In this document: positions 5,089 through 27,189 of the stretch, one piece after another
Position numbering within the stretch: position 1 is the first letter of the stretch
Layout of the letters: every line of letters starts with the position of its first letter
Source: Escherichia coli
GTDB lineage: Bacteria > Pseudomonadota > Gammaproteobacteria > Enterobacterales > Enterobacteriaceae
Length of the DNA stretch: 64,000 nt
Direction: 5' to 3' (one strand)
Assembly (NCBI RefSeq): GCF_024298765.1
Contig: NZ_CP101210.1
The notes under the pieces: model-generated
The model's database searches: none
What the model was told of the DNA's origin: nothing
The model's input: only the letters and a program-made list of their open reading frames with translations
Translations under genes and position numbers: made by a program

Positions 5089-5868
5089 TTACGCCAGTTG
5101 TACGGACACGAACTCATCAGGGTCAGCCAGCAGCATCAGCGGTGCTGACTGAATCATGGTGAACTCACGCGCCGGATCGCCGGTGGTCACCCAGTTTTTC
5201 GGGTAACGGGCAGAGGCGTTAATGCCTTCGCGCTGTGCGTCCGCATCCTGAATGCAGCCATAGGTGCGCAGACCGCGTGCATGAGTGTTACCCAGCACCA
5301 TCGTGTTGTCCGGCAGGAAGTTCTTTTTGACGCCGTTTTCCACGTACTGTCCGGAATACACGACGATGGCCACATCGCCATACATCCCCTTATAGGACAC
5401 CGCTTTACCCAGGTCTTTCACCGCTGTCTCCAGCTCGGAATGAGAGCCGCGACGGGTATCCAGCTTCTCCTTGACGGCGTTGAAGGAACGGAACAGCGCC
5501 CAGCCTTTCGGATCAAACACGATGATATTCACCACGCCGCTGGCGTTCAGCGCGTAGGCTTCGATATCGTCGGTCGGGTCATACGTGGACTTGTCACGCT
5601 TGCTCCACTCCGTGCCGCCGGACTGCGTGATGTTGTTCGCCGCACTGCGGCCCATATCCACCTCAACCGGATCGAAGGCTTCACCGGTCATGGTGTATTT
5701 GCCCTTGAGCACGGCAGAAACTGCCTGCATCTCTTCGACCTGAGCAATGGCCAGCTCTTCGTCACGCATGTTCTGCAGGATGATGCGACGGCGGCGGTAA
5801 GCCGGGTCCGCCAGATTCTGCGGATCTTCATCCGGCAGGCGACGCAGGGTCATCTGCGGATTCACTTC
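5089..5868 (-). pseudogene. E: major capsid protein E, C-terminal ~258 codons, separated from its 5' part by a ~10.9 kb insertion
   Basis: ORF 5089..5865 begins EVNPQMTLRRLPDE..., i.e. lambda gpE from about residue 91; no start codon of its own. Confidence 0.9.
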
Positions 5869-5869
5869 A

Positions 5870-5879
5870 TGCTTGGGTT
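5870..5879. repeat. left junction direct repeat (att core copy) TGCTTGGGTT
   Basis: Identical 10-mer at 16754..16763; context atgcttgggtta vs gtgcttgggttt. Confidence 0.8.
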
Positions 5880-5955
5880 ACATGAGTCAAATATGAAAGG
5901 ATGTGAATGATTTGATTACGTTTTAGCTATAGAATTGAAATGGAAAATCCTTGAA

Positions 5956-5976
5956 TGCAATACAACGTGCAATACA
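5956..5976. repeat. GCAATACA direct repeats near left end (candidate arm-type integrase sites)
   Basis: tgcaatacaacgtgcaatacatgg; the same motif recurs at the right end. Confidence 0.45.
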
Positions 5977-6013
5977 TGGATGAAAACCATCACTCATTTA
6001 ACAAGAGGAATCT

Positions 6014-6919
6014 ATGCGCTCACCCAACAGAATGCATGAACGCTCAACATTTTATAAGTATATGTCGTTGAATACCGCGAAGATTGTTCTTGATTCATGC
6101 AGCCTTAGATGGAGTTCTCCGGTCCTATTTAATGACCCTTTTGATGTTCCAAGAGAAGTTATGCCTGGTATTAACGAAATTAATATTGGCAAAGCTTTAG
6201 CCCGCAAGTTAATAGCGGAGTTGATTACCCCCAGAGAAGACATACAAAATTTAAACCCTAGAATTAGAACAATGCTAAGTGATTTCCAAAAGTCATTTCC
6301 TTTAGGCATACCCGCAGGATTAATTGAAAGATTTCAAGAAATGGTAAACATTCCACCAGTTGGGATTGGCGCTCCTGCGGCAATACAAGAAATGAAAGAT
6401 ATCTGGCGAGGAATGCTTAATAACAGAAGGATTTTGTGTTTATCTGAGAGCCCTATAATCACTCCTATGTGGAATCACTATGCCGATAAATATAAAGGTA
6501 TAGTTATCGAATTTGATTGTGTAGACTTTCTGGATAGCGCTTGGTTAATAGCCAAACCTATGAAATACACAGATGAAATGCCTCTAACTCACACTGCTGA
6601 AGGGATGGCCGAGTTGCTTTTCATGCCAGACAATAAGTCAATTGAATATATCAATAATGAGATAATATTCATAAAAACAGAAGAATGGGCATATGAAAGA
6701 GAGTGGAGAATTTCAACCTACGCTAGGCCAAATAGCACTGGTCAATATAGCGACTTAAAATTTCACCCTTTTGAGTTAAAATCTGTAATACTTGGTCCTC
6801 TTTTTGATGCCAGCGAGTTCGATGAAGTCGCATCACTAGTTAAAATGTATCCAAGAGCGAAATTATTTAAAAGTTCATTTGGGAACGACAGAAAAATATC
6901 CATAGTACCACTACCTTAA
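6014..6919 (+). CDS. DUF2971-like hypothetical protein, AT-rich cargo
   Basis: 301 aa; motifs FYKY, LFNDPFD, EWAYEREWR recalled as DUF2971-like; codon usage visibly more AT-rich than neighbours; hairpin terminator follows. Confidence 0.6.
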   Translation: MRSPNRMHERSTFYKYMSLNTAKIVLDSCSLRWSSPVLFNDPFDVPREVMPGINEINIGKALARKLIAELITPREDIQNLNPRIRTMLSDFQKSFPLGIPAGLIERFQEMVNIPPVGIGAPAAIQEMKDIWRGMLNNRRILCLSESPIITPMWNHYADKYKGIVIEFDCVDFLDSAWLIAKPMKYTDEMPLTHTAEGMAELLFMPDNKSIEYINNEIIFIKTEEWAYEREWRISTYARPNSTGQYSDLKFHPFELKSVILGPLFDASEFDEVASLVKMYPRAKLFKSSFGNDRKISIVPLP

Positions 6920-7025
6920 AAGGTCAAATGCTTTTGACAAATAAAATCTATCGCCAGTTTTACTGGCGACTTTTAAGCAACAAAGAACCACCTAAGCACT
7001 CTTCCTACCTATGGTTTCATTTGTT

Positions 7026-7577
7026 TTAACTTCGCTGATTATCCTTGATATACCTTTCAGCCATATCTGGAATGTTATCTGAGATCTGGTAAGCTCGAAT
7101 AAATGCTTTACTGACCTCCATCTTAATGAAGTCCTGATACCGTTTTTCCATGCCAGGAAACTGTCGACAGATCGCAAGTGGAAGACTATCAATGATTGCT
7201 CCAACTTCCCCAGTTAATTTCGACAAGGCATAAGTCGCAAATGCAGTGTCAATTACCTCACCTGTTTCGCTGGCATTCTTCAGTTCCTGTGCGTCGGCCT
7301 GCGCACGCGTAAGTCGATGGCGTTCGTACTCAATAGTCCCTGGCTGGAGATCTGTCTCGCTGGCCTGCCGCAGTTCTTCAACTTCCCGGCGCAGCTTTTC
7401 GTTCTCAATTTCAGCATCCCTTTCGGCATACCATTTTATGACGGCGGCAGAGTCATAAAGCACCTCATTACCCTTGCCACCGCCTCGCAGAACGGGCATT
7501 CCCTGTTCCTGCCAGTTCTGAATGGTACGGATACTCGCACCGAAAATGTCAGCCAGCTGCTTTTTGTTGACTTCCAT
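7026..7577 (-). CDS. terminase small subunit Nu1-like; N-terminal ~100 aa identical to the prophage Nu1, C-terminal half divergent
   Basis: 183 aa; MEVNKKQLADIFGASIRTIQNWQEQG... identical to ORF 22397..22942 over the DNA-binding domain, then about half-identical. Confidence 0.85.
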   Translation of the reverse strand: MEVNKKQLADIFGASIRTIQNWQEQGMPVLRGGGKGNEVLYDSAAVIKWYAERDAEIENEKLRREVEELRQASETDLQPGTIEYERHRLTRAQADAQELKNASETGEVIDTAFATYALSKLTGEVGAIIDSLPLAICRQFPGMEKRYQDFIKMEVSKAFIRAYQISDNIPDMAERYIKDNQRS

Positions 7578-7599
7578 TGTTCATTCCACGGACAAAAAC

Positions 7600-7790
7600 A
7601 GAGAAAGGAAACGACAGAGGCCAAAAAGCTCGCTTTCAGCACCTGTCGTTTCCTTTCTTTTCAGGGGGTATTTTAAATAAAAACATTAAGTTACGACGAA
7701 GAAGAACGGAAACGCCTTAAACCGGAAAATTTTCATAAATAGCGAAAATCCGCGCGCCTGACGCCCCGTAGCCTGTCAGATCGCCGGAAA
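7600..7790 (-). other. cos-like site of the element: cosB conserved, cosN divergent
   Basis: Aligns base for base with prophage cos at ~22960..23150; the 12-nt cohesive-end sequence differs at 5 positions (aggtcgccgccc vs cgcctgacgccc on the + strand). Confidence 0.7.
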
Positions 7791-7822
7791 GGACCCGCCA
7801 GCCAGAGCGGGCCCTAATTTCA

Positions 7823-8206
7823 TCAACCAATCAGCTTATAGCGACCATCCCGTGCATTGCGGCGTACACGCTCAATCTTGAGGCATAGCGCCGCATCTGG
7901 CTTTTTTGGGACAGGTACGCGGCAATATTCAGAAGCGCGAGGAATATTATTTATCCAGTCGATCACTTCACTTAAATACCAGGCCTTACGCCCTTCCGTA
8001 ACCTGCACACGCTCCGGGAACTCTCCACTAGCCTCAAGGTTTAGCAGTGTACGCCGACTCAGGGTTGTAATTTCCATCACCTGATTCATATCAACAAGGC
8101 GCTCGCTTAAACACATTTTGTCAGCGATAGCTTTTAATTCCTCTACAGCTGGATTCGGGTACATCATTTCGGCAATTGGCTTAAGGTCATTGTAATCATT
8201 CTGCAT
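7823..8206 (-). CDS. AlpA-family DNA-binding protein with N-terminal extension
   Basis: 127 aa; C-terminal part (ITTLSRRTLLNLEASGEFPERVQVTEGRKAWYLSEVIDWI) resembles AlpA/excisionase-type wHTH. Confidence 0.6.
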   Translation of the reverse strand: MQNDYNDLKPIAEMMYPNPAVEELKAIADKMCLSERLVDMNQVMEITTLSRRTLLNLEASGEFPERVQVTEGRKAWYLSEVIDWINNIPRASEYCRVPVPKKPDAALCLKIERVRRNARDGRYKLIG

Positions 8207-8217
8207 TGTATCCCCCT

Positions 8218-8559
8218 TTACACACGAGCCAGCGGCTGAACAGAAATACCTGAGCCAACAAACGCTGCAATCTTTACTGACAGTTCTTTTACAGACTCAG
8301 GCCAGTTCAGAGCATCAACATTTAAGACACCTGTCTTATAGACCTGAGCCTGTGTTTTTTTCGCGGTGTCGATTTGTACAGCGGAAACATAAACCGCTTT
8401 ACCTACGCTCGAACCATCCCATACCACCAGTGCACCTGTTGCATCTTCCTGCATCAGTGGCGTAAATGCAGGAATTACCCCTTTATTAGCTGAAAATATC
8501 CCCAGCGTAGTCACCAGTGCTTCAGTGCCAGCCATGAGTTCAGTGTAATGAGTAGCCAT
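8218..8559 (-). CDS. head decoration protein, gpD family
   Basis: 113 aa; ...VVWDGSSVGKAVYVSAV...FVGSGISVQ parallels lambda gpD ...[17 protein letters not shown]...FAGTAISIV. Confidence 0.65.
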   Translation of the reverse strand: MATHYTELMAGTEALVTTLGIFSANKGVIPAFTPLMQEDATGALVVWDGSSVGKAVYVSAVQIDTAKKTQAQVYKTGVLNVDALNWPESVKELSVKIAAFVGSGISVQPLARV

Positions 8560-8568
8560 TGCTCCCCC

Positions 8569-9609
8569 TTAGCCAATGCGAACGGTAACAAAACGATTGA
8601 TGCGGGCCGGTATTGGCTGTGGTGCTGAATGTGTCTGCACATATTCAATAGCCGGATCACCAGGCACAATATAGTTTTTCGGTGCAAGTTCGGCTTTAGT
8701 CAGCCCCATTCGGATTAGCTCCGGATCCTGAATACCGCCATAGGCGACAATCCCCTGAAGAGCCGTATTGCCAAGCACCATCAAATCAGGATCAAGGAAA
8801 TGTTTTTCAGTTCCGTCCTCGTCGGTATAACGCCCGCTGTATACAACAATCGCAACATCGCCCATATACCCTTTAAAACTCACCGAATCACCAAGGTCTT
8901 TAAGGGCCGTTTCCAGTTCGGAATTAGAGCCACGACGGGTATCCAGAGCCTCTTTTATCGCTCTGAATGAACGGTATTTCTTCCATACATTACCGCCCAT
9001 AATGATGATATTAGTGACGCCCTCACTAAATTCTGCGTAGCTCTCAATATCATCATTTGGATCAAAAGTTTCTTTATCCTTACCTGACCACTCAGCACCG
9101 CCAGACTGAGTGATGATATTTTGTGGTTTAATATTCCAGTCCAGCTCATAACGTTCAATACCATCGCCCTCAATGATATTTTTCCCCGTTGTGATTGCCT
9201 GAACGGCAAGCCATTCAATACGTGCACGAATAGATTTAGCCTGATTTACAATCGCCTGTTTAACTTTAATATTACGCGCTCCAAAAGCATTGTATTGCTC
9301 AGGTGATACACCAGCAGGGCGCACAGCTAACTTATTTGGATCAATGCTGCTTTTCGGCTTCATATAGCCTGGACGAATTGTTTTTGATTCGTACCCTTCG
9401 TCACGTGAAACTTTACTACCCACCATAGGAGAACAAAACGCTGCAATTGGGATATTTGGATCGTCGATTGTATCAAGAATAATATCGCGCGATTCAAACA
9501 TTACCGAGCGAGTAAAAAACAAACTGGTAAACAACGCATTTAGTTGTTTTTGTACATCTACAGCATTAACCACCTGTACAAGCTGGGTAGGCGAATATAA
9601 ATCAACCAT
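8569..9609 (-). CDS. major capsid protein, gpE family, divergent paralog of prophage E
   Basis: ORF 8569..9783; likely start MVDLYSPTQL... after AAGAGG RBS; conserved blocks TQSGGAEWSGKDKETFDPNDDIESYA and TRRGSNSELETALKDLG match gpE. Confidence 0.8.
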   Translation of the reverse strand: MVDLYSPTQLVQVVNAVDVQKQLNALFTSLFFTRSVMFESRDIILDTIDDPNIPIAAFCSPMVGSKVSRDEGYESKTIRPGYMKPKSSIDPNKLAVRPAGVSPEQYNAFGARNIKVKQAIVNQAKSIRARIEWLAVQAITTGKNIIEGDGIERYELDWNIKPQNIITQSGGAEWSGKDKETFDPNDDIESYAEFSEGVTNIIIMGGNVWKKYRSFRAIKEALDTRRGSNSELETALKDLGDSVSFKGYMGDVAIVVYSGRYTDEDGTEKHFLDPDLMVLGNTALQGIVAYGGIQDPELIRMGLTKAELAPKNYIVPGDPAIEYVQTHSAPQPIPARINRFVTVRIG

Positions 9610-9826
9610 ACGCATCCTCTTTGCATTCATTAAAAATAATTGTGGATATATGCTATCACCGATATTTGTCATGCGAATACATGCAACCGAGTGCAATGTT
9701 GTATAAAGTTTTGGGATAACAACTTCAGCGCGGATAATTAGTGTTAATATCTTAACTCCCTTTGGTCGGGATTTATGTAGCATGCCGGAAAATTTATTTT
9801 TTTCCGGCCTTTTTTATTGGCAATAT

Positions 9827-10276
9827 TTAAAACGGAATATCATCTCCCCATTGCTCATTATCTCCCACTGGTGGATGGCTTCCTTGCTGATCTGCCTGTT
9901 GTTTTGCTCTGTTCAGTGCGTCAGTAGCCTGACCCTGTTGACCTTTTTTGCCGCCCGGTCGCACCGTTCGCGCACTGATTACGCTGTCTGCGATAACCTG
10001 CCAGCCCTGCCGCGTTTCACCGTTCTGTCCAGTCCACTGGCTCACCTGCATATTACCCGCCACGCTCAGGAGTTCGCCTTTGTGATGCTTTGCCAGCGCG
10101 TCGGCTTGTCTGCCAAACGCCAGGACAGATAACCACATCGTCGCCGTTCCGTCATCTGCCTGGCTGCATGGCAAAGATACCGCCATCCGTGCCAGTGTCA
10201 TGGGTGTTCCCTTGCTGGTATGTTTTACCTGTGGGTCGTCCACCAGCCGCCCGTAAGCTGCTATTTGCGCCGTCAT
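9827..10276 (-). CDS. SSB-like single-stranded DNA-binding protein
   Basis: 149 aa; OB-fold-like N-terminus and C-terminal acidic tail ending DDIPF, the SSB hallmark. Confidence 0.6.
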   Translation of the reverse strand: MTAQIAAYGRLVDDPQVKHTSKGTPMTLARMAVSLPCSQADDGTATMWLSVLAFGRQADALAKHHKGELLSVAGNMQVSQWTGQNGETRQGWQVIADSVISARTVRPGGKKGQQGQATDALNRAKQQADQQGSHPPVGDNEQWGDDIPF

Positions 10277-10287
10277 GCTGCCTGCTC

Positions 10288-10530
10288 TCAGGACTTAATA
10301 TTGATGGTTGTCACTTCCTCCGCTTCGGCAATCTCCCGTTCGGTCAGCGTGGCAAAGTTTGCAGCCGCCGTTGTCATGAATGCGCTTATCAGTTCGGGAT
10401 GTGCTTTCGCGTATCCTTCCCCGGCGTTGCGGTCTATTGCCTTAATCGCCACCCTTAGCCAGTGTTCAGCCATATCAAGGGCGCGGTAATGTGGCTTTAT
10501 ATGTTTGTTCAGTTTTCCTGATGTGTGCAT
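10288..10530 (-). CDS. hypothetical protein
   Basis: 80-aa ORF downstream of the iteron region, same strand as the replication genes. Confidence 0.4.
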   Translation of the reverse strand: MHTSGKLNKHIKPHYRALDMAEHWLRVAIKAIDRNAGEGYAKAHPELISAFMTTAAANFATLTEREIAEAEEVTTINIKS

Positions 10531-10569
10531 TTTTATTTTTACCCCCTCGTTTAAAAAGTTTTTTGTGCA

Positions 10570-10805
10570 CCACCACCTTGTCTACCTTGTCTACCTGATT
10601 AGTTATCAGGCCAGTAATGGCGCGGGTTTCAGGGAGGTAGACAGCCCCAAATAGCTGTCTACCTCATCTCTACCCGTCTCCTTACCTGTCTACAAAAATG
10701 GGTAGATAAGGTAGATAACAGGTAGACAGTGAAAAATAGTTATCTACCTGCATTAATGCATTGAAATAAAAGTATTTTATTTCAGTCAGGTAGACAAGGT
10801 AGATA
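10570..10805. repeat. iteron array GGTAGAYA (11 or more copies, both orientations): candidate replication origin
   Basis: ttgtctaccttgtctacc, ggtagacag, ctgtctacc, ggtagataaggtagataacaggtagacag, ttatctacc, ggtagacaaggtagataa; immediately downstream of the primase-helicase gene. Confidence 0.75.
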
Positions 10806-10819
10806 ACCATTGCCATTTT

Positions 10820-12571
10820 TTATAAAAACGCATCGCAATCATCAGTAGTCGTTGCGTTGGTCTGCGTGACTCCCTTAACTTTTCGCGTAATATATTCATA
10901 TCCGTAAACTTTCGCCGCTGACCTCATAGCCTTTCCGAACTCATTCACGCTCAAACATTTCCCCTTTCCTGTATATGCCATGAAGGCCATATAGACACGG
11001 TAAAGGCTGTTTCTGGTCGTGTACTTCACGGTGTCACCACCACCGCCCATCATTAGCCCACGAGCTTCCTCCAGAAACTCCAGCGCCGCGCAAAGCTCAA
11101 CAACCGGATCCGTTTGCTGCTTTATTGCCAGAGCTTCATCACCGTCACGCTGTTCCAGTAATAAAGCCCGTGCCTTTTCAGGGTCAGCAAAATTAGCCAG
11201 CAAGCGGCGGATAATTACGGGGATTTCTGCCGCTATCTTTTCCGGTAATTCCTTGTCTTTTTCGTCCTCCCTTACAATGTTGTCGAACCGGAAAATCACC
11301 CGACGGCGTGACACACCTCCGGCCCGTTCGGTAAAGATCATCGGGTCGTTATTGGTTGCCAGTACCACCGCCCTTATTATCGTCGTGAATCGCTTCTCAT
11401 ATTTCGGGTTAATTTCAACGGGATCGCCTCCCGTGATTTTCTTGATGCCCGTGCCTTCCCCCGTATATTTCGGCTGATCGGCAAGGACGATAAGACGACT
11501 CCCGACAACCTGCGCACGCCCTCCTGCATCATCGAGTGATGTCATCTCTGCGCTTACGGTGTTCTGTTTGCCAGCAAGCAGGGTGGCAATATGGGTAAAT
11601 GTACTCTTACCGCTTCCCCCGTCTCCGGTGGCCTCAATGAACATCTGCCAGTCGTACCGGTTCGCCATAATCATGTACAGCGCGGCACATATACGCATCA
11701 TCTTGCGCGGGTCTTTTCCGGCTGCGTGCTCAAGCCATTTATGAAAGTTTGGCGCGTTATCGCGGATGTTCTCCCCTGGTGCTGGTGGCGTGTACTCAAT
11801 GCCGTTGTGCGTGGTGATCCAGTTCTCCGGCGTGTGCGGGGAAAATTCCCCCGTTTTCAGGTCAAGCGCACCATTGGCGAACGGCAGCAAATCGCCGGAC
11901 GGCTCGCCCATTGGTTCGGCAATAACTTTTAACGCTTCAACGGCGTTATTGATCACGCGTTTGCTGAAAGTGGCCCTGTGCTCTGAATAGATCGCCACCA
12001 TTTCGCGGCTCAGCTCCATTGTGCTGATCGGACACCATACCCCGCCGCGCCATACGTGAACGATTTCACTTTCCGGATGCACACAAACGCCATCAAAGCG
12101 CTCGGCAAGCAGCTGCGCGCGCTCACTGTCTGCCATCTGTGAAAGTTGCGCCTTTTGCTTCGTCGGAAGATTAAGCACCAGGCTTTCCCCACGCTCGCAT
12201 TCCTCTTTGAGTCGCGGCAACTGGTCGGATAAATCCACTGGGCTGATGTCAGTAATCCCCGCGTATTCGTGTACGGTCTTCACTCCAGCCACAGCCAGTA
12301 ACGTAACAATCTGCGTCATGCTGTGCTCTGTGATATGTCCTGCGCGGTAAACACGCACACACTGACGATCTTCATCAATGATCCGGTAATCGGTGATGTT
12401 TTTCAGTTGCTCATCAGCCAACACGACAGGCGGCACATCGTCGGCGGCAATATGTTTACCCGCCCATTCCTGCCACTCTTTCGCATGGCTCCACGCATCA
12501 CTACCTGCAAAGATGATTATCTCTGTCAGTCTGTCGCGTGGCTGTTTTTTTAAGTTCGGTGCCAGTTTCAT
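10820..12571 (-). CDS. primase-helicase (P4 alpha / D5-type replication protein)
   Basis: 583 aa; Walker A GDGGSGKST in the C-terminal half; domain layout as in satellite and plasmid primase-helicases. Confidence 0.75.
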   Translation of the reverse strand: MKLAPNLKKQPRDRLTEIIIFAGSDAWSHAKEWQEWAGKHIAADDVPPVVLADEQLKNITDYRIIDEDRQCVRVYRAGHITEHSMTQIVTLLAVAGVKTVHEYAGITDISPVDLSDQLPRLKEECERGESLVLNLPTKQKAQLSQMADSERAQLLAERFDGVCVHPESEIVHVWRGGVWCPISTMELSREMVAIYSEHRATFSKRVINNAVEALKVIAEPMGEPSGDLLPFANGALDLKTGEFSPHTPENWITTHNGIEYTPPAPGENIRDNAPNFHKWLEHAAGKDPRKMMRICAALYMIMANRYDWQMFIEATGDGGSGKSTFTHIATLLAGKQNTVSAEMTSLDDAGGRAQVVGSRLIVLADQPKYTGEGTGIKKITGGDPVEINPKYEKRFTTIIRAVVLATNNDPMIFTERAGGVSRRRVIFRFDNIVREDEKDKELPEKIAAEIPVIIRRLLANFADPEKARALLLEQRDGDEALAIKQQTDPVVELCAALEFLEEARGLMMGGGGDTVKYTTRNSLYRVYMAFMAYTGKGKCLSVNEFGKAMRSAAKVYGYEYITRKVKGVTQTNATTTDDCDAFL

Positions 12572-12867
12572 TTTTTGCCCCTGAATGCGTTAATCATGCT
12601 TTTCATTTTCTGGATGTTTCCCCGCGCTTTTTCCCTGCTGATGGGCTTACTGCGGGGTGCGGCATATACCAGGGAAAAATCACGCCGGAACTGATAAACA
12701 GGCATCACGCAGTCATAGCTATACCCCTCACGACGGTAAGTGATGCGCCGTTCTGCCACGCCTTTAATCGTTACCGTGCCGCCGTATTTATCGCGGTAAA
12801 TATCGCCGTTCATAAATTCAGGCCGAGCGGGGCCGCTGGCAATAAAGCCAGAATTTTTCATTTCCAT
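12568..12867 (-). CDS. hypothetical protein
   Basis: 99-aa ORF, abuts the primase-helicase start. Confidence 0.4.
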   Translation of the reverse strand: MEMKNSGFIASGPARPEFMNGDIYRDKYGGTVTIKGVAERRITYRREGYSYDCVMPVYQFRRDFSLVYAAPRSKPISREKARGNIQKMKSMINAFRGKK

Positions 12868-12884
12868 ATTATTTATTCCTCGAC

Positions 12885-13106
12885 TTAACTCGACTTATTT
12901 GATAGCTGGGCACTATTTATTGCGTCATTGAGTTTTTCTGCTGCTTCATCAATAAGTGACAACAGGCCATAAGCAATATTTGCATCTTCATTGTCATTTA
13001 TGCAATCAAGCCACATATTTAATATTGCTTTTGCTGAATTATTTAAAGTTAATGAACTTTCTGCACATGCTAACAATTTAAAAAAGACTTCCCGTTCTGT
13101 ATTCAT
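12885..13106 (-). CDS. hypothetical protein
   Basis: 73-aa ORF in a tightly packed small-gene operon. Confidence 0.4.
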   Translation of the reverse strand: MNTEREVFFKLLACAESSLTLNNSAKAILNMWLDCINDNEDANIAYGLLSLIDEAAEKLNDAINSAQLSNKSS

Positions 13107-13298
13107 TTAATCCCCCACCAGCTTACTTTCTTCCTCAATCAAAAAACTAGCGACACTTCCCGAAAGACGCGCCAGTAGGCTCGCCAGTGCGGATATATCA
13201 GCATCTGTAATTTTGTTCGGGTATACCTCAAGAAGGCGGCAAATAATTTCTGTCTGGTGCGCACGTTCAGCGGCTTCGTGTAATGTGATTTCCTGCAT
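13107..13298 (-). CDS. hypothetical protein
   Basis: 63-aa ORF; its stop abuts the next ORF. Confidence 0.4.
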   Translation of the reverse strand: MQEITLHEAAERAHQTEIICRLLEVYPNKITDADISALASLLARLSGSVASFLIEEESKLVGD

Positions 13299-13483
13299 TA
13301 ATGCACCTCTTTTAATTCATACACTGCTGAAATAATGACTTGTGATAAGCCATATTCTGATGATTCGCTTCTCACCGCAGCAATAGCCGTCTGAACATTA
13401 ACAGCCTTCACATTCTGAGCGATACCAATTGTGTGGCCTATTGGGTTAACAGCTCGGGCAAATACACGGAAGGTTTTAAGCAT
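13298..13483 (-). CDS. hypothetical protein
   Basis: 61-aa ORF, first gene of the leftward operon. Confidence 0.4.
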   Translation of the reverse strand: MLKTFRVFARAVNPIGHTIGIAQNVKAVNVQTAIAAVRSESSEYGLSQVIISAVYELKEVH

Positions 13484-13863
13484 GACTCACTCCCTGGCGG
13501 ATTTTTGCAGCGAATACAGCAACACAACCGGACGGGCAACGGCTACGCGCTTCGCGTTCCGTCCAGGCGGTTACGTGGATGATTTGAGATTCTCCGGCAC
13601 TCAGTGCCAGAAAACGCCACACAAAGGCCGTTTGTGTGTGTACAAGGTGTGGTATATGATTTACAGCAACCATAACGGCTCCTAGTTTACGTTGTTGGTT
13701 AGACGCCCCGTATGTGTTCCCAGCACTGCGGGGCGTTGCTCTTTGTATTTCAACAATCCTTTCGGTGTGTTTCATGTTATGAGCGCATGAAACACACGTC
13801 AAGGCTTTTTGTATTTCTTTTTTTGTGTATACTGAAACACACCGATGATTAGGAGTTTCAGAA

Positions 13864-14169
13864 ATGGCAACGGCTAACAAAAACGCAAAATCACAACTGA
13901 CAACTGTCAGAGTCCCACTAGATGTTATGCAAGGGATGGAATCCGTTAAGCTGGACGGTGAAAGCAATGCCGGATTTATCGTAACCGCCATGCGCGGTGA
14001 AATCGCCCGCCGCCAGGCAGAAGGAAGCGGAGAAAATCCCCTCGTGTCTTCACTGGATGCCTTAGCTAAGGTCGAACAAATCGGCATCAAGGCAGCGGAG
14101 GAAATCGGGCAACTCGTAGCCGTCGCTCGTGAAGAACTCCAGCGGCGTAAAGCCAAAGAATCTGAATAA
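13864..14169 (+). CDS. putative ribbon-helix-helix transcriptional regulator
   Basis: 101 aa; AGGAG RBS; TVRVPLDVMQGMESV...NAGFIVTAMRGEI fits a beta-strand plus two helices; divergent from the small-gene operon. Confidence 0.5.
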   Translation: MATANKNAKSQLTTVRVPLDVMQGMESVKLDGESNAGFIVTAMRGEIARRQAEGSGENPLVSSLDALAKVEQIGIKAAEEIGQLVAVAREELQRRKAKESE

Positions 14170-14519
14170 TTAGTATCAGCGCCGTGATGTGAGTAACTAC
14201 GGCGCATTGCTATGTAAATACTGGCAATAAACAGAAAAGGTAGTTCTACTCCGAATAATTTTATCTGACACTACTCCTGAACTAACATGCGCTTATCTTA
14301 CAGGATATAAATATAAATCCATAAAATCACGATTAAATAAAGTCGCTCCAAACATAAACCACACCCAACGCTTAACAAGATAGCAACAAACAGGTAAATA
14401 ACTTGCAGAAATATTTATCGCAAGGATTATCATTATTAATGACAAATCACTTTACCAAGTCATTCCCCTCTCTTATCATAAAGAGAAAGTAATAAATAAG
14501 TTAAGGGAGTTAGAATGCT

Positions 14520-15056
14520 ATGAATCTAAAAAAAATAGCCACAAACACAAAAAACAAGATAACAGAAACATTTAATAAACTTATATTAGAGGCATCTAAA
14601 ACCCCCACACAAGATGAAATTAAAATACTTGAGAGAAGGAGTAAGAAGTTTAATTACTCCTTTTTCTCATACGCAGTCACAGGAGCTATAATAGTTTTTT
14701 GCTCTCAACCATTAATTAAATACGCAAACCCAATACTTATTTTATTGAGTGGTCTGTTACTGTCTATCATCATTATCATTCTCAGAATGATTTATATTTC
14801 ACAAGCGAATGCATCATGGACAACCAAAAAACGCTCACATGTACTAGTTCATTTTCTTTCTGCATGTTTCATAGCATCAACATTGACGTTGCTATATCAG
14901 GCTTACGATAATAACATCACACACAAATTGTACTGTAAAAATATACAACAACTTATTGAAAAAAGGATAAAAACAGAAAAAAACATCAGCATATTCAGTG
15001 GGATGCAATGCACCCCGGTATATGATTACTCTTTATTTGGATTTAATCTCTTATAA
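14520..15056 (+). CDS. hypothetical membrane protein, AT-rich cargo
   Basis: 178 aa; three hydrophobic segments (AVTGAIIVFCSQPLI, ILILLSGLLLSIIIIIL, VLVHFLSACFIASTLTLL); GGGAG RBS; AT-rich. Confidence 0.55.
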   Translation: MNLKKIATNTKNKITETFNKLILEASKTPTQDEIKILERRSKKFNYSFFSYAVTGAIIVFCSQPLIKYANPILILLSGLLLSIIIIILRMIYISQANASWTTKKRSHVLVHFLSACFIASTLTLLYQAYDNNITHKLYCKNIQQLIEKRIKTEKNISIFSGMQCTPVYDYSLFGFNLL

Positions 15057-15067
15057 AGAATGTTATT

Positions 15068-15101
15068 ACTGATTTGAGTACAAATTCTCAAATCAGTAAT
15101 T
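15068..15101. terminator. perfect 13-bp inverted repeat hairpin between convergent genes
   Basis: ttactgatttgag-N8-ctcaaatcagtaa. Confidence 0.5.
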
Positions 15102-15125
15102 CATAATATTTTATTCTGAGATAAT

Positions 15126-15353
15126 TTAAACTACCCACTCACCTCGAATCCATGCCTGCACTTCTGAAAGACGATATGCAACAGCAGTGGAACCAATCTT
15201 GATCCGCTTAGGAAATTTTCCTTCCTTCTCCAGCTTCCAGCGTGTGCTGTTCGCAAGAGTGGTTAGCTCCCGACATTCTTTCTCACGGATCATTCGGTCA
15301 ATGTTAGGAATGTACTCCAGACCCTTTTTATCAACAATTGCCATTTTTTTCAT
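15126..15353 (-). CDS. alpA: AlpA-family regulator/excisionase-like protein
   Basis: ORF 15126..15362; ...LTTLANSTRWKLEKEGKFPKRIKIGSTAVAYRLSEVQAWI typical of AlpA; directly follows int. Confidence 0.65.
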   Translation of the reverse strand: MKKMAIVDKKGLEYIPNIDRMIREKECRELTTLANSTRWKLEKEGKFPKRIKIGSTAVAYRLSEVQAWIRGEWVV

Positions 15354-15354
15354 G

Positions 15355-16590
15355 TTAACCAACCTTTTGTTTGAGGATTGTCACTTTTGAATCAGCACCT
15401 GCGATGCTATTGAGATATGTAGTCCAGAGTTCCAGAGCATCCAGTTTTTTAGCCATAAACTTACTCCGGTTGTAAACACCTGCCACGCCAGGTAGCGCAT
15501 GGCCTAACAGTTGTTCTACTACATAAAATTCAACACCGAGATCACTTAGATGAGTAGATAGCGTTCTTCTAAGGTCGTGTAGTGACCATTGTTTTTCATG
15601 GCCCAAACGTTTACCGATTTTCCCCCCAATCTTGCTTACGCTTTCTCTAATTCGCAGACTTCCCAGCACATAACCAGTATGTTTTGTCTCTTCGTGAACA
15701 TCCGTTACCCACTGTCGTAGAATTTCAGGTACTGGTCTGACGATTTCAACACCAGTTTTTGAGTGATCTTTTGGTACAGTCCAAACCCAACTTTCGAGAT
15801 CCCATTCGCTCCATTCTGATAATCGGGCTTCACTCATTCGACATCCAAATACTGTACAAAGCACAAACATTTTTCGCGTGTATTCAGACATTAGTTTTAA
15901 ATCAGGCTCGACAAAAATTGCCTTCCAGAGCTGGCCGAGTTCGGCTTCATCCAGAACCCGATCCCGCTTACCTGCAATCTGCCCCACATCACTCATGCGC
16001 AAATCCTTTAAAGCATCACACGTCGCGTACTGGCGTACCCGACAAAAACGAAGAGCTAATTTAGTGTCAGAAAAAACATACGCCGCCATAACTGGTGCAT
16101 TACGTTTAATTCGGTCAAAACAGTCCAGCCATTCATATAGGTGAGTGTCATTTACGGGCAAATGACCGATATAGGGAAAGATATGCTTTCGAAATCTGCC
16201 AAGCGTTACAGCATGAGTTTTACGACGCACCTTACAGTAATTTTCATACCAGTAATTTAGTGCATCCTCCACTGTAACTGGCTTTAAGCGTTCTTCAGCC
16301 TGAATCTTAATCTGGATACGCGGATCACGTTTGTCAGCCAACCAACCACGGCACTCGTCGCGCTTTTCCCTTGCCTGTTTGAGTGACATATCAGGATATT
16401 TACCCAACGTTAGCCAGACCGGAGCAGCCCGGCCACCTGCTAACCTGTAGAAGAAAACAAAGCTCACAGCCCCTTTAGTACTCACACGAATAGAAAGCCC
16501 CTTTCCATCAGCAATGGTGATCTGCTTTTCTCTGGGTTTCCCCAGATATCCTTTAAGCGCTTTGTCGCTCAGTTTGTTCTCGCCAGCCAT
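15355..16590 (-). CDS. int: tyrosine integrase, P4-like
   Basis: ORF 15355..16641; probable start MAGENKLSDKALKG...; C-terminal catalytic region with HDLRRT and GH motifs. Confidence 0.85.
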   Translation of the reverse strand: MAGENKLSDKALKGYLGKPREKQITIADGKGLSIRVSTKGAVSFVFFYRLAGGRAAPVWLTLGKYPDMSLKQAREKRDECRGWLADKRDPRIQIKIQAEERLKPVTVEDALNYWYENYCKVRRKTHAVTLGRFRKHIFPYIGHLPVNDTHLYEWLDCFDRIKRNAPVMAAYVFSDTKLALRFCRVRQYATCDALKDLRMSDVGQIAGKRDRVLDEAELGQLWKAIFVEPDLKLMSEYTRKMFVLCTVFGCRMSEARLSEWSEWDLESWVWTVPKDHSKTGVEIVRPVPEILRQWVTDVHEETKHTGYVLGSLRIRESVSKIGGKIGKRLGHEKQWSLHDLRRTLSTHLSDLGVEFYVVEQLLGHALPGVAGVYNRSKFMAKKLDALELWTTYLNSIAGADSKVTILKQKVG

Positions 16591-16605
16591 TTTTAGCCCC
16601 AAAAA

Positions 16606-16640
16606 GCAATACAAGCTGCAATACAGAGATGATTGCAACA
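16606..16640. repeat. GCAATACA repeats near right end (candidate arm-type integrase sites)
   Basis: aagcaatacaagctgcaatacagagatgattgcaacaca between int start and the right junction. Confidence 0.45.
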
Positions 16641-16752
16641 CACAGATAACGAGGAAAATTCAGTGAAAGCACCAGATAAACTTATTCTTTATTATCAAAA
16701 GATTAAGTGTAAAAACCAGCAACTACACGAAAGCCTCAGAAAGCCATGCTAA

Positions 16753-16998
16753 GTGCTTGGGTTTGACATATCCCGGCGTAAATTCAGAGGTGGAGCCGCC
16801 ACGGGAACGGATAACCTCACCGGAAACAATCGGCGAAACGTACAGCGCCATGTTTACCAGTCCCGGAATTTGTGAGAGATAGACTTTCTCCGTAGTGAAG
16901 GGATAGCTCTCACGGAAAAAGAGACGCAGAAACAGCGGATCAAACTTAAATTTCTGCTCATTTGCCGCCAGCAGCTGGGCGGTTGTGTACATCGACAT
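16753..16998 (-). pseudogene. E: major capsid protein E, N-terminal ~90 codons; frame runs into the insertion and stops at 16723
   Basis: ORF 16723..17025: MSMYTTAQLLAANEQKFKFDPLF...GYVKPKH then LAWLSEAFV* from element DNA. Confidence 0.9.
16754..16763. repeat. right junction direct repeat (att core copy) TGCTTGGGTT
   Basis: Identical 10-mer at 5870..5879. Confidence 0.8.
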
Positions 16999-17053
16999 AA
17001 AAAAATCCCGTAAAAAAAGCCGCACAGGCGGCCTTTAGTGATGAAGGGTAAAG

Positions 17054-17386
17054 TTAAACGATGCTGATTGCCGTTCCGGCAAACGCGGTCCGTTTTTTCG
17101 TCTCGTCGCTGGCAGCCTCCGGCCAGAGCACATCCTCATAACGGAACGTGCCGGACTTGTAGAACGTCAGCGTGGTGCTGGTCTGGTCAGCATCAACCGC
17201 CAGAATGCCAACGGCAGCACCGTCGGTGGTGCCATCCCACGCAACCAGCTTACGGGTGGAGGTATCCAGCATCAGCGGGGTCATTGCAGGCGCTTTCGCA
17301 CTCAATCCGCCGGGCGCGGTTGCCGTATGTGCCGGGTCACTGTTGCCCAGCGGCTGGTAATGGGTAAAGGTTTCTTTGCTCGTCAT
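17054..17386 (-). CDS. D: head decoration protein D
   Basis: [31 protein letters not shown]..., lambda gpD. Confidence 0.9.
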
Positions 17387-17395
17387 AAACATCCC

Positions 17396-18715: not shown

Positions 18716-22396
<3,681 letters not shown>

Positions 22397-22422
<26 letters not shown>

Positions 22423-22942
22423 TCAGCAACCCCGGTATCAGTTCATCCAGCGCGGCTGCTTTGTTCATAGCTTTGATGATATCCCGTTTCAGGAAATCAA
22501 CATGTCGGTTTTCCAGTTCCGGAAAACGCCGCTGCACCGACAGGGGGATCCCGTCGAGAATACTGGCAATTTCACCTGCGATCCGCGACAGCACGAAAGT
22601 ACAGAATGCGGTTTCCACCACTTCAGCTGAGTCTCTGGCATTCTTCAGTTCCTGTGCGTCGGCCTGCGCACGCGTAAGTCGATGGCGTTCGTACTCAATA
22701 GTCCCTGGCTGCAGATCTGTCTCGCTGGCCTGCCGCAGTTCTTCAACTTCCCGGCGCAGCTTTTCGTTCTCAATTTCAGCATCCCTTTCGGCATACCATT
22801 TTATAACGGCGGCAGAGTCATAAAGCACCTCATTACCCTTGCCACCGCCTCGCAGAACGGGCATTCCCTGTTCCTGCCAGTTCTGAATGGTACGGATACT
22901 CGCACCGAAAATGTCAGCCAGCTGCTTTTTGTTGACTTCCAT
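22397..22942 (-). CDS. nu1: terminase small subunit Nu1
   Basis: 181 aa, matches lambda Nu1 as recalled. Confidence 0.95.
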
Positions 22943-22959
22943 TGTTCATTCCACGGCCA

Positions 22960-23150
22960 AAAACAGAGAAAGGAAACGACAAAGGCCCAAAAGTTCGTTT
23001 TCAGCACCTGTCGTTTCCTTTCTTTTCAGGGGTTATTTTAAATAAAAACATTAAGTTACGACGAAGAAGAACGGAAACACCTTAAACCGGAAAATTTTCA
23101 TAAATAGCAAAAACCCGCGAGGTCGCCGCCCCGTAACCTGTCGGATCGCC
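22960..23150 (-). other. prophage cos site (cosB R/IHF elements plus cosN); cohesive-end sequence GGGCGGCGACCT at about 23120..23131
   Basis: aaaacccgcgaggtcgccgccccgtaacctgtcggatcgcc is the reverse complement of lambda cosN with flanks as recalled. Confidence 0.85.
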
Positions 23151-23330
23151 GGAAAGGACCCGTAAAGTGATAATGATTATCATCTACATATCACAACGTG
23201 CGTGGAGGCCATCAAACCACGTCAAATAATCAATTATGACGCAGGTATCGTATTAATTGATCTGCATCAACTTAACGTAAAAACAACTTCAGACAATACA
23301 AATCAGCGACACTGAATACGGGGCAACCTC

Positions 23331-23525: not shown

Positions 23526-23886
23526 ACATCCCGGTTTCTTCCACCATCGCACCGGAAAAGCGACTATGAGGGTAACCCTGCGTCTGTCAGCACAGTAAAA
23601 CCCGGTGTGCATCGTTTTTGATTATTCCCGCACACTCACGCAGAAGGAATTCCCCGTCGGGCTACGGTCATGGTTAATGCGGGAATACGGCGACGATACA
23701 GCGCAGCTAAAAGGGTAATGGACAGAAAGAGCGGTTTATTTCATTCCACAGGATTCTGAGTGCCCCCCCCTCCTCCAATAGGCTGAGCATCCACCTATAT
23801 AGTTTTAATTTTCATCAATCCATTTAACTATCGTTTAATTGTTGTCACATAGGATTCTGCCGTTTTTAACAATGCAGGATAATAAG

Positions 23887-24180
23887 ATGAAAAAAATGTT
23901 GTTTTCTGCCGCTCTGGCAATGCTTATTACAGGATGTGCTCAACAGACGTTTACTGTTGGAAACAAACCGACAGCAGTAACACCAAAGGAAACCATCACC
24001 CATCATTTCTTCGTTTCGGGAATTGGACAGGAGAAAACTGTTGATGCAGCCAAAATTTGTGGCGGCGCAGAAAATGTTGTTAAAACAGAAACCCAGCAAA
24101 CATTCGTAAATGGATTTCTCGGTTTTATTACTTTAGGCATTTATACTCCGCTGGAAGCGCGTGTGTATTGCTCACAATAA
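23887..24180 (+). CDS. bor: Bor lipoprotein (serum resistance)
   Basis: ORF 23839..24180; start MKKMLFSAALAMLITGCAQQTFTV... with lipobox; lambda Bor. Confidence 0.9.
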   Translation: MKKMLFSAALAMLITGCAQQTFTVGNKPTAVTPKETITHHFFVSGIGQEKTVDAAKICGGAENVVKTETQQTFVNGFLGFITLGIYTPLEARVYCSQ

Positions 24181-24211
24181 TTGCATGAGTTGCCCATAGA
24201 TATGGGCAGCT

Positions 24212-24673
24212 CTATCTGCACTGCTCATTAATATACTTCTGGGTTCCTTCCAGTTGTTTTTGCATAGTAATCAGCCTCTCTCTGAGGGTGAAATAATCCC
24301 GTTCAGCGGTGTCTGCCAGTCGGGGGGAGGCTGCATTATCCACGCCGGAGGCGGTGGTGGCTTCACGCACTGACTGACAGACTGCTTTGATGTGCAACCG
24401 ACGACGACCAGCGGCAACATCATCACGCAGAGCATCATTTTCAGCTTTCGCATCAGCTAACTCCTTCGTGTATTTTGCATCGAGCGCAGCAACATCACGC
24501 TGACGCATCTGCATGTCAGTAATTGCCGCGTTCGCCAGCTTCAGTTCTCTGGCATTTTTGTCGCGCTGGGCTTTGTAGGTAATGGCGTTATCACGGTAAT
24601 GATTAACAGCCCATGACAGGCCGACGATGATGCAGATAACCAGAGCGGAGATAATCGCGGTTACTCTGTTCAT
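24212..24673 (-). CDS. Rz: i-spanin Rz
   Basis: ORF 24212..24685; N-terminal TM helix then coiled coil; directly downstream of endolysin. Confidence 0.85.
24271..24453 (-). CDS. Rz1: o-spanin Rz1 lipoprotein, embedded in the +1 frame of Rz
   Basis: 60 aa with lipobox VVGCTS and proline-rich stretch [15 protein letters not shown]. Confidence 0.8.
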
Positions 24674-25167
24674 TGCTGACCCCACAAACAGATTTCACGC
24701 TCAATCTCACGACGAGTCATGAGACCTTTCCATTGCTTACCGCCAGCATATGTCCAGCGACGTAGCTGATCACATGCGCCTTTAATATCACCCTGGTTTA
24801 TTTTGCGAAGAAGCGTCGATGTTCTGAAATTGCCAGCACCCACGTTGTAGACGAACGAGTAAAGAGCGCCGCGCGTTGTTTCCGGTATATCGACTTTGAT
24901 GTACGGGTTAATTTGTCTGGCGACAGTGGCAAGGTCTTTATTCAGGAGGGCTTTGCACTCTGCTTCGGTATACGTTTTACCGGGAATGATGTCTTTTCCT
25001 GTATGCCCGTGACATACAGTCCATACACCAACTATGTCTTTGTAAGGATTATGTCTCACACCTTCCAGACCATCGTTACCACTTGGGCCAGTGATTAATA
25101 CAGATGCTATAGCAATAGCCCCGCCACCAATAGCAGCAGCAACAGCTTTTCGTAATGATGGAGGCAT
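24670..25167 (-). CDS. R: SAR endolysin (phage-21 R-type lysozyme)
   Basis: 165 aa; N-terminal Gly/Ala-rich signal-anchor-release segment then lysozyme domain; resembles DLP12 RrrD / R21. Confidence 0.85.
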
Positions 25168-25382
25168 TATCCACCTCTCGCAGCCTTGCGCTTATCTTCT
25201 TTAATCTTGAAATAAAGGTTTGTCAGGTACGTCAGCAGGCCAAATACCAGGCTACCCAGCACTCCAATTGCCGCCCACTGTGAGGGCGTGACTTTATCTA
25301 GCAGCTGTAAAAACCAGTACCCGGCACTACCTGCTGAGGTGCCATAGGCGACACCCGTTGTTAACTTATCCATGGATTTCAT
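25167..25382 (-). CDS. S: pinholin (S21-type class II holin)
   Basis: 71 aa; [20 protein letters not shown]...[35 protein letters not shown] closely parallels S21 / EssD. Confidence 0.85.
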
Positions 25383-25503
25383 AACCCCACCTCGCAGACA
25401 AAGCGGGTGTAAATTGAGGGAATACTACGAAACGTAACAGACTCGGAGTCAGTGAATAACTCAGGTATTGGGTTATCAGCTAATATCGAGACTCAAAAAA
25501 TGG

Positions 25504-25527
25504 AAAAACCCGCTCGACGGCGGGTTT
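25504..25527 (-). terminator. rho-independent terminator upstream of the lysis cassette (tR'-like)
   Basis: Minus strand aaacccgccgtcgagcgggttttt. Confidence 0.5.
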
Positions 25528-25954
25528 AAGCTGTGTGACGAAGTAACCACTCTTAACAGCATAACCAATTTTTTACGTACGTAAACCACTAAATGATATT
25601 TGCGAGAATGCTACCGAGTATTGAAAACACCACTACAAATACATAAGCAAATCTCAACAAATAACCAACAAATAATTTCCAGTGTTATTTTTAGCTGGTT
25701 TAAATTGAACCTTCAAATTATAGAGCACTTATAAATAACAGCCGTTAATATAAATTGGCTAACAGATTTATTTTTATTCAGCCAAGAGCCATGAATAGGA
25801 TTCGATAGAAAAAAGTTCAGATAAAAATAGAGATCTACTTCACAAATCAAACGAGAAACCAAAACTTACATCTTGAAATAATCACATTGATTAGATGAAT
25901 ATTTATCGCGCAGTGACATCATTTTTTAATAATAGTTCAAAAAAAGGGCTCACG

Positions 25955-27052: not shown

Positions 27053-27189
27053 TCTGATTACGAAAAAGATATGTTGCGGGAGGCGTTGCCTCCCCAACAT
27101 ATAAGTGGCTCCCTCAAGCCACTTCCTTTAGAAGCACAACCTTGCTTCTAACTATATAAACCTTCTGTTATATATTACCCTTTATTTTT

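Follow-up and report, generated by a model that had tools for sequence, protein, structure and literature searches.

A lambda-type cos site with a variant cosN allele in a PICI embedded in the capsid gene of an Escherichia coli prophage

Introduction

The stretch of Escherichia coli DNA analysed here (64,000 nt, hereafter the window) contains a lambdoid prophage with two cos sites, and the second of them raises the question of why its cosN, from which the cohesive end is made, departs from that of the surrounding prophage. The first-pass annotation called this cosN a recoded variant that had not been described, and proposed that it might discriminate between helper and satellite DNA or act as a safety device while the element is embedded. 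We compared the site with the helper cos and with the cos sites of related satellites and phages, and weighed these proposals against that of a natural allele at a working packaging site.

A PICI embedded in its helper (an HE-PICI) and belonging to the 11capE type has been described as Eco567.11capE, in prophage 50icd of E. coli NRG857c (Tommasini, Mageeney, and Williams 2023, PMC10111431). Excision was demonstrated for this type element, and particles of 11capE or of its helper were not recoverable. That study pointed out a cos-like segment of 258 bp sharing about 90% identity with the one in the helper; the cos subsites and the difference in cosN were not analysed there.

The cosN of lambda is functionally asymmetric, with mutations at bp 7-12 having minimal effect (Feiss et al. 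2015, PMC4669245). C11G is silent, while its symmetric counterpart G2C lowers yield about 10-fold, and the tolerance at bp 7-12 has been attributed to TerS at cosB, which positions TerL for the bottom-strand nick (PMC4669245). TerS places TerL via cosB and does not itself read cosN (PMC4669245, PMC9026076). Selection is seen on cosQ and on cosN's left half, which Feiss et al. regard as constrained and of which bp 6 is the edge, and not on bp 7-12; the natural variants N15, phiD326, and Gifsy-1 all map to the right half (PMC4669245). With lambda TerL, yields are equal whether cosN is that of lambda or of N15, equal cleavage efficiency being known for the N15 allele and point mutants only, and a mismatch between ends at two of 12 positions lowers viable yield about 4-fold (PMC4669245).

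Results

The element that carries the second cos is a helper-embedded PICI of the Eco567.11capE type, integrated in the major capsid gene E, which agrees with the initial reading of a satellite-like element inside the prophage. It spans 10,884 bp on the minus strand (5870-16763) between 10-bp att cores, TGCTTGGGTT, at 5870-5879 and 16754-16763, and in-silico excision of the 10,884 bp yields an uninterrupted lambda E ORF of 341 aa. Insertion in a prophage late gene, a short att block, and restoration of the gene on excision are the features of the HE-PICI class E:Phage_cap_E, and the element also has the four-zone layout of HE-PICIs (integrase/AlpA, Bro/regulatory, replication, and late zone). 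Its gene order is tyrosine integrase, HTH and small regulators, Icd-like, DUF4222, primase, SSB, E-like capsid, D-like decoration, AlpA-like, the satellite cos (cos'), TerS-like, and DUF2971 cargo. The empty-site equivalent of this integration is found in a related prophage, L009 (relatives are given here by locus handles).

The host prophage reads along the minus strand as cos, Nu1, A, W, B, C, D, the first ~80 codons of E, the insert, the remainder of E, and the tail genes. The helper cosN, GGGCGGCGACCT, lies at 23120-23131 and cosQ at 23132-23161, followed by Nu1 (22397-22942) and A, encoding TerL (gpA; 20497-22422), all on the minus strand, and by D (17054-17392). Helper E is split into an N-terminal fragment (16754-16999, minus strand; coordinates transferred from L001, where it is annotated as a partial major capsid protein) and a C-terminal fragment (5089-5865, minus strand). 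The satellite, while splitting helper E, encodes its own E-like major capsid protein (8569-9609, minus strand), with 45% identity to helper E by tblastn, and a decoration-like protein (8218-8559, minus strand), with 38% identity to helper D by tblastn, so that capsid-shell homologues are supplied while the helper's is broken. Directly upstream of cos' is an AlpA-family HTH gene of 127 aa (7823-8206, minus strand; phrog_2790; PDB 8c3t AlpA, E 2e-9).

The AlpA-cos junction of this PICI family occurs in 238 of 5,426 complete E. coli genomes. NZ_CP062853.1 matches the window with 100% identity at 7700-7860. Gene E (L001-L004), the portal gene (L005), and a tRNA-Ile gene (L006) serve as integration sites for the relatives of the element. 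The portal-gene element of E. coli AHB4 (L005) and the chromosomal tRNA-Ile element of E. coli 1EC213 (L006) have another integrase and the canonical lambda cosN. Some IMG/VR contigs are about 11 kb long and were considered as excised or packaged PICI genomes; no terminal overlap was seen in them and they carry E fragments at both ends, marking them as provirus cut-outs.

The second complete lambda-type cos in the window occupies 7602-7796 and comprises cosQ, cosN, R3, I1, R2, and R1. A gap-free alignment of 7400-7798 with 22780-23165 pairs cos' with the prophage cos at 22967-23161, bearing out the base-for-base correspondence first noted for 7600-7790; the sequences and the span given at that time were accurate, and the full site is slightly longer. 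Past ~7798 the alignment collapses, helper homology stopping at the outer edge of cosQ' and extending only about 30 bp to the left of cosN'. The two sites (7755-7766 and 23120-23131) share one orientation and are separated by 15,365 bp.

Within the window, the canonical lambda 12-mer GGGCGGCGACCT has a single occurrence, the helper cosN, against a chance expectation of 0. The corresponding 12-mer of the element, at 7755-7766, reads CGCCTGACGCCC on the plus strand and GGGCGTCAGGCG on the minus strand. In lambda-style numbering, where bp 1 is the base that opens the overhang, GGGCGTCAGGCG and GGGCGGCGACCT disagree at five of 12 positions (bp 6, 8, 9, 10, and 12). Two further changes, at bp 18 and 23, lie just beyond the 12-mer, so that both counts in the first-pass annotation hold, and cosQ' is changed at bp -5 and -12. 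The complete set of differences between cos' and the helper cos is bp -12, -5, 6, 8, 9, 10, 12, 18, 23, 53, 99, 134, 138, 144, 150, and 175. Since five of these fall within the 12 bp of cosN' and 11 in the remaining aligned sequence of 217 bp (-29 to -1 and 13-200), cosN' is a block replacement rather than a product of scattered drift.

Around this block the subsites of a lambda-type cos are in place, all on the minus strand. cosQ', GGGTCCTTTCCGGCGATCTGACAGGCTACG (7767-7796), matches helper cosQ at 28 of 30 bases and stands at the fixed lambda-type distance upstream of the nick site, bp -29 to 0, reading GGGTCCTTTCCGG...TACG. The cohesive-end 12-mer lies in the context TACG / GGGCGTCAGGCG / CGCGG, in which the left half GGGCG and the conserved CG dinucleotides flanking both nick positions are kept. 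The putative TerS-binding site R3', CGTTTCCGTTCTTCTT (7699-7714, bp 53-68), differs from helper R3 (23064-23079) in its first base only, as does R1', CTGTCGTTTCCTTTCT (7602-7617, bp 150-165), from helper R1 (22967-22982). The inverted R sequence R2', AGAAAGGAAACGACAG (7643-7658, bp 109-124), is identical to helper R2 (23008-23023), and so is the AT-rich I1-like block between R3' and R2' (7669-7681) to helper 23034-23046; its assignment as an IHF site is by position. The initial description of cosB as essentially identical to the helper's is thus accurate. R3, I1, R2, and R1 stand at lambda spacing and are followed by the terS gene, Nu1', at the same positions as in the helper: the Nu1' ATG at 7577 and the helper Nu1 start are both at bp 190. 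Counted from the sequence, the twofold symmetry of the 16-bp cosN falls from 10 positions in the helper to eight in cosN'.

To see how the variant is distributed in the family, we sampled 88 PICIs by their AlpA-cosQ junction, which is PICI-specific and leaves the sample unbiased with respect to cosN. The variant GGGCGTCAGGCG was carried by 48 and the canonical GGGCGGCGACCT by 34; four had GGGCGGAAGGCG and two had other alleles. All 39 PICIs whose cosB is not of the own-TerS type carry GGGCGTCAGGCG (32 with a lambda-type R3 and seven unclassified; IMG/VR loci L007-L214, 88 sites), while those with an own-TerS-type cosB comprise 34 canonical, eight variant, and six other. This association between cosB type and variant cosN could hint at function rather than shared ancestry. 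Two PICIs embedded in the capsid gene with an E-type integrase (L195 and L209) carry the canonical allele, as does the portal-embedded L005. Where a helper and its embedded PICI could both be read (the window, L001, L002, and the L048/L105 contig), the helper was canonical and the PICI variant every time. Most of the PICI copies are carried by one integrase lineage, and the copies are therefore not independent.

The 12-mer GGGCGTCAGGCG is invariant across the 48 PICI copies and 14 metagenome copies despite at least six cosQ flanks and at least six cosB flanks, and this invariance may reflect constraint or recency. The segment to the left of cosN (AlpA-cosQ-cosN) is PICI-specific and conserved, while that to the right has been exchanged repeatedly with phages. 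An exact 18-mer search of IMG/VR found 53 contigs, 49 with a PICI-type and four with a phage-type upstream flank; to the right of cosN the 49 PICI-flanked contigs have at least four different sequences, some with a different PICI-specific TerS and cosB. A contig with its end at cosN' would be an in-silico sign of cleavage; the 16 metagenome matches included none, and none were seen among the IMG/VR contigs. A further 46 exact 18-mer matches in species-representative genomes were discarded as chance matches in GC-rich DNA with no cos context.

Phages of this group are themselves polymorphic at cosN. A scan anchored only on cosQ and GGGCG returned 113 lambdoid cos sites with 12 different 12-mers, 84 of the sites being canonical and the variation confined to bp 6-12. 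GGGCG was imposed by the scan pattern, so its conservation across the 12 alleles is not independent evidence; the CG dinucleotides flanking cosN are likewise kept in all 12 alleles. Several of these natural alleles have T or A at bp 6. A dedicated survey of natural cosN variation is reportedly that of Vahanian et al. 2017, Virology 509:140.

The variant is not specific to satellites: lambdoid prophages colinear with the helper have exactly this 12-mer at their own cos, in disagreement with the first reading of it as a feature of the satellite. It was present at six phage-type cos sites: L009, L044, L047, L059, and two metagenome contigs. L009 runs colinear with the helper at 97.7% identity across 6.4 kb, and its Nu1, gpA, portal, and D are accompanied by an unbroken E; in this apparently complete prophage GGGCGTCAGGCG is the only cos allele. 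L047 and L059 are colinear with the helper in the early, lysis, and cos regions. The Nu1 of L009, L047, and L059 is 99% identical to the helper's, whereas L044, which has a phage-type flank and gives no blast match to the window, ends too near cosN to show a Nu1. In L009 (IMGVR_UViG_2913112809_000002, 1229-1790) the satellite's cosN allele stands beside a PICI-like cosQ variant, with the E attachment site empty. This pattern suggests that cos alleles move between PICIs and helpers by recombination.

A related allele, GGGCGGAAGGCG, shares bp 8-12 with GGGCGTCAGGCG and is carried by the deposited phages PhiR46_1 and YDC107_1 and by chromosomal prophages of strains AR_0089 and APEC E14033; the Nu1 of AR_0089 has the same protein accession as the helper Nu1 of L001 and L002. 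The N15 sticky end, GGGCGGCGTCCG, has G at bp 12 in common with GGGCGTCAGGCG, and its record annotates the difference from lambda. In the comparison with other cos sites that had been proposed at the outset, N15 also departs from lambda, and no exact GGGCGTCAGGCG was found in deposited phage genomes, where the closest sequences are two bases different. Nor was it found at a phage's own cos in complete E. coli genomes, the best matches there carrying GGGCGGAAGGCG. The match to the cosN of other lambdoid phages, which had been named in advance as the result that would undo the recoding claim, comes from the prophages described above and is a match at the level of sequence only.

The small-terminase gene of the satellite, Nu1' (7026-7577, minus strand, 183 aa), is chimeric. 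Residues 1-102 are identical to helper Nu1 and cover the DNA-binding and part of the oligomerisation region (PDB 6hn7_B, lambda TerS residues 1-98, E 5e-59), while the C-terminal 81 residues are divergent, with ~40% identity to the best-matching TerS among deposited phages. In lambda the C-terminal part of TerS binds TerL. The C-terminal half fits neither the PICI family's own TerS, to which Nu1' is 38% identical overall (L004), nor a known phage TerS (~40% over the C-terminal half), and both were rejected as its source. Nu1' is intact in the window and in several of the copies from IMG/VR; strain 200177 has it as a pseudogene and strain 104 in a form shortened to 64 aa, and many copies in which it is inactivated or missing retain the same cosN'.

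The element has no TerL gene, and the TerL that might act on it does not co-vary with the cosN allele. TerLs 98.6-100% identical to helper gpA co-occur with three alleles, GGGCGGCGACCT, GGGCGGAAGGCG, and GGGCGTCAGGCG. All nine TerL residues that differ between L009 and the helper are also polymorphic among phages with a canonical cosN, and no allele-specific TerL substitution was found among TerLs at least 98.6% identical to the helper's serving these three alleles.

In the unexcised composite, which is ~61 kb in the published type strain, the cos'-to-cos interval of ~45.6 kb would be the sole span that lambda could package. Neither the head genes nor most of the PICI are part of it, and its ends would be mismatched.

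Discussion

We think it likely that cos' is a functional satellite packaging site bearing a near-neutral natural cosN allele, and not a special recoding. The bases that matter are kept, namely GGGCG at bp 1-5, the CGs flanking the nicks, cosQ, and the cosN-R3 spacing. Counting against function is the change of G to T at bp 6, at the edge of the constrained left half. The anatomy of cos', the distribution of its allele, and the absence of TerL co-variation were all observed directly in this work. Cleavage of the site is most likely, judging by the published genetics of lambda and N15.

Under this reading, once the PICI is induced and excised, helper Nu1 would recognise satellite DNA through the lambda-type R3-I1-R2-R1 cosB, with IHF bending the DNA at I1 while Nu1 occupies the R sites. 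Helper TerL (gpA), anchored at cosB, would then nick 12 bp apart at cosN' whatever bp 6-12 read, giving satellite chromosomes their own self-complementary ends, 5'-GGGCGTCAGGCG, matched within each PICI. Four 10.9-kb units (43.5 kb) would fit a lambda-sized head; alternatively, the satellite's E-like and D-like proteins might form a different shell. The alleles at bp 6-12 would be exchanged by recombination between lambdoid phages and their PICIs, and the simplest account of the difference between satellite and resident helper is an inherited haplotype. Satellite and helper ends, mismatched at five of 12 positions, should not anneal productively, as a passive consequence of that difference.

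The cosN difference is one more natural allele in a documented polymorphism, and any novelty is confined to the specific allele and its distribution among PICIs. The claim of a recoded, undescribed variant gives way to the right-half polymorphism already documented for N15, phiD326, and Gifsy-1 (PMC4669245). The idea that cosN' serves to discriminate, or to keep the embedded element safe, fits poorly with the canonical alleles of sister PICIs embedded in the capsid and portal genes, and with the near-identical TerLs that serve three alleles.

Another explanation is that the mismatch between ends is itself adaptive. A satellite end that cannot anneal to the helper end would prevent hybrids from circularising, an idea that we regard as unlikely. 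The hybrids meant here would be cos'-to-cos products of the unexcised composite, or helper-satellite joints formed after co-injection, and selection would be strongest in PICIs with the helper's own cosB. Several observations are in keeping with this: the helper is canonical and the embedded PICI variant in all readable pairs, the variant is present in 39 of 39 PICIs lacking an own-TerS cosB while own-TerS PICIs are mostly canonical, and the cos'-to-cos segment, at ~45.6 kb of a ~61-kb composite (PMC10111431), would be of packageable size. As a mismatch of two in 12 costs about 4-fold (PMC4669245), five in 12 should be far worse. However, the copies are non-independent and mostly of one integrase lineage, the canonical allele is found in the capsid-embedded L195 and L209 and the portal-embedded L005, and helper-type phages themselves carry GGGCGTCAGGCG. 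A cos'-to-cos product without the PICI also offers no obvious selective return to the satellite. The more specific proposal that selection maintains such a barrier, in that a PICI with the helper's cosB competes for the same TerS and a 5/12 mismatch blocks hybrid circularisation, seems to us unlikely to much the same degree.

It is similarly improbable that cos' is attenuated or dead, with the changes at bp 12, by the bottom-strand nick, and at bp 6 reducing or abolishing cleavage. Such a site might be a decaying remnant acquired from a helper, or a weak site that avoids cuts while embedded. Decay of the late zone does occur, as the pseudogenes and truncated forms of Nu1' in sister elements show; the type strain yielded no particles (PMC10111431), and the twofold symmetry of the 16-bp cosN is reduced from 10 to eight positions. 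Decay, though, is hard to reconcile with the same 12-mer in 48 of 88 PICIs and 14 metagenome copies amid varied flanks, and with the intact cosQ, bp 1-5, CG flanks, and R3 spacing. G at bp 12 is also present in the functional N15, right-half changes are silent in lambda (PMC4669245), and L009, apparently a complete prophage, has the allele at its sole cos.

A distinct nicking specificity, in which cosN' needs a different or modified terminase such as gpA with the chimeric Nu1', is very hard to sustain: the full-length TerS-like protein, with a DNA-binding half that is the helper's and a C-terminal half only ~40% identical to the best phage TerS, might be taken to suggest it, but the element has no TerL, Nu1' is lost or inactive in many copies with the same cosN', there are no allele-linked TerL substitutions, and TerS positions TerL via cosB without reading cosN (PMC4669245, PMC9026076).

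Read as a packaging site with a natural allele, cos' closely resembles lambda cos with its gpNu1/gpA terminase. Subsite order and spacing, the R3, R2, and R1 sequences, and the cosQ sequence are the same, as are the geometry of the 12-bp 5' overhang (read here from sequence), GGGCG at bp 1-5, the CG flanks, and a TerS start at about bp 190. It differs in its cohesive end, at bp 6, 8, 9, 10, and 12, and in its location on an 11-kb satellite without TerL. Among natural variants, N15 and phiD326 (bp 9 and 12), Gifsy-1 (bp 8, 9, and 11), and mEp213/LLS (GGGCGGCGCGCT) share with cos' variation in the cosB-proximal part of the overhang, a conserved left half and CG flanks, and the same TerL type (PMC4669245, PMC12315714), although cos' is changed at more positions, five, including bp 6. 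The element has the same gene E site, 10-bp core, 11-kb size, gene order, and own capsid gene as Eco567.11capE, while copies of this type differ in cargo and in the state of Nu1'.

The EcCICFT073-type cos PICIs with Rpp are also E. coli PICIs that use a lambda-type cos and the helper terminase, with cosQ and the cosQ-cosN spacing conserved (Fillol-Salom et al. 2018, PMC6092414; 2019, PMC6739421; Murialdo and Feiss 2022, PMC9026076). They show the reverse pattern, in which the helper cosN is kept and a foreign cosB is read by Rpp-TerS, whereas the element in the window has a helper-type cosB and a different cosN. No Rpp homologue was found beside cos': in structure-chain comparison the upstream 127-aa protein matched AlpA (PDB 8c3t) and gave no Rpp match, and the downstream gene is TerS, residues 1-98 matching 6hn7_B. 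Redirection of the Rpp type is therefore rejected, there being no Rpp detected beside cos', a helper-type cosB, and a cosN different from the helper's at five of 12 positions. The cos SaPIs such as SaPIbov5 are similarly satellites packaged via a copy of the helper phage cos (cited in PMC6092414) but differ in phage family and terminase, a comparison based on the literature only.

These results extend the polymorphism already known for lambda-like cohesive ends by one natural allele and indicate that HE-PICIs often carry another cosN allele than their resident helper. This is useful for cos annotation and for predicting PICI termini, with the caution that the lambda 12-mer alone is insufficient for finding cos. 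If the mismatch affects the fate of hybrid helper-satellite DNA, it would constitute a layer of packaging compatibility beyond TerS-cosB recognition, and a functional association between non-own-TerS cosB and variant cosN would reveal the same layer. Were the end-incompatibility barrier real, cosN would be a second, hitherto unrecognised layer of specificity in satellite-helper conflict.

The variable parts of these genomes include a cargo slot between the TerS-like gene and the att site, at 5880-7025 in the window, where it holds the DUF2971 gene. In relatives the slot (L002 7035-8751; L004 7903-8664; L003 8263-9198) is occupied by DUF262 and HEPN in strain 104, by an Abi-family protein in AST216, and, in one more strain, by a hypothetical protein. 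The slot looks like the anti-phage defence hotspots reported for P4 and PICIs. On the helper side, the prophage of the sister genome L002 (25321-28486) has a porin gene among its lysis genes and, immediately past cos, an iss gene for a bor-like serum-survival lipoprotein; the stretch of the window corresponding to this part of L002 is ~23800-27100.
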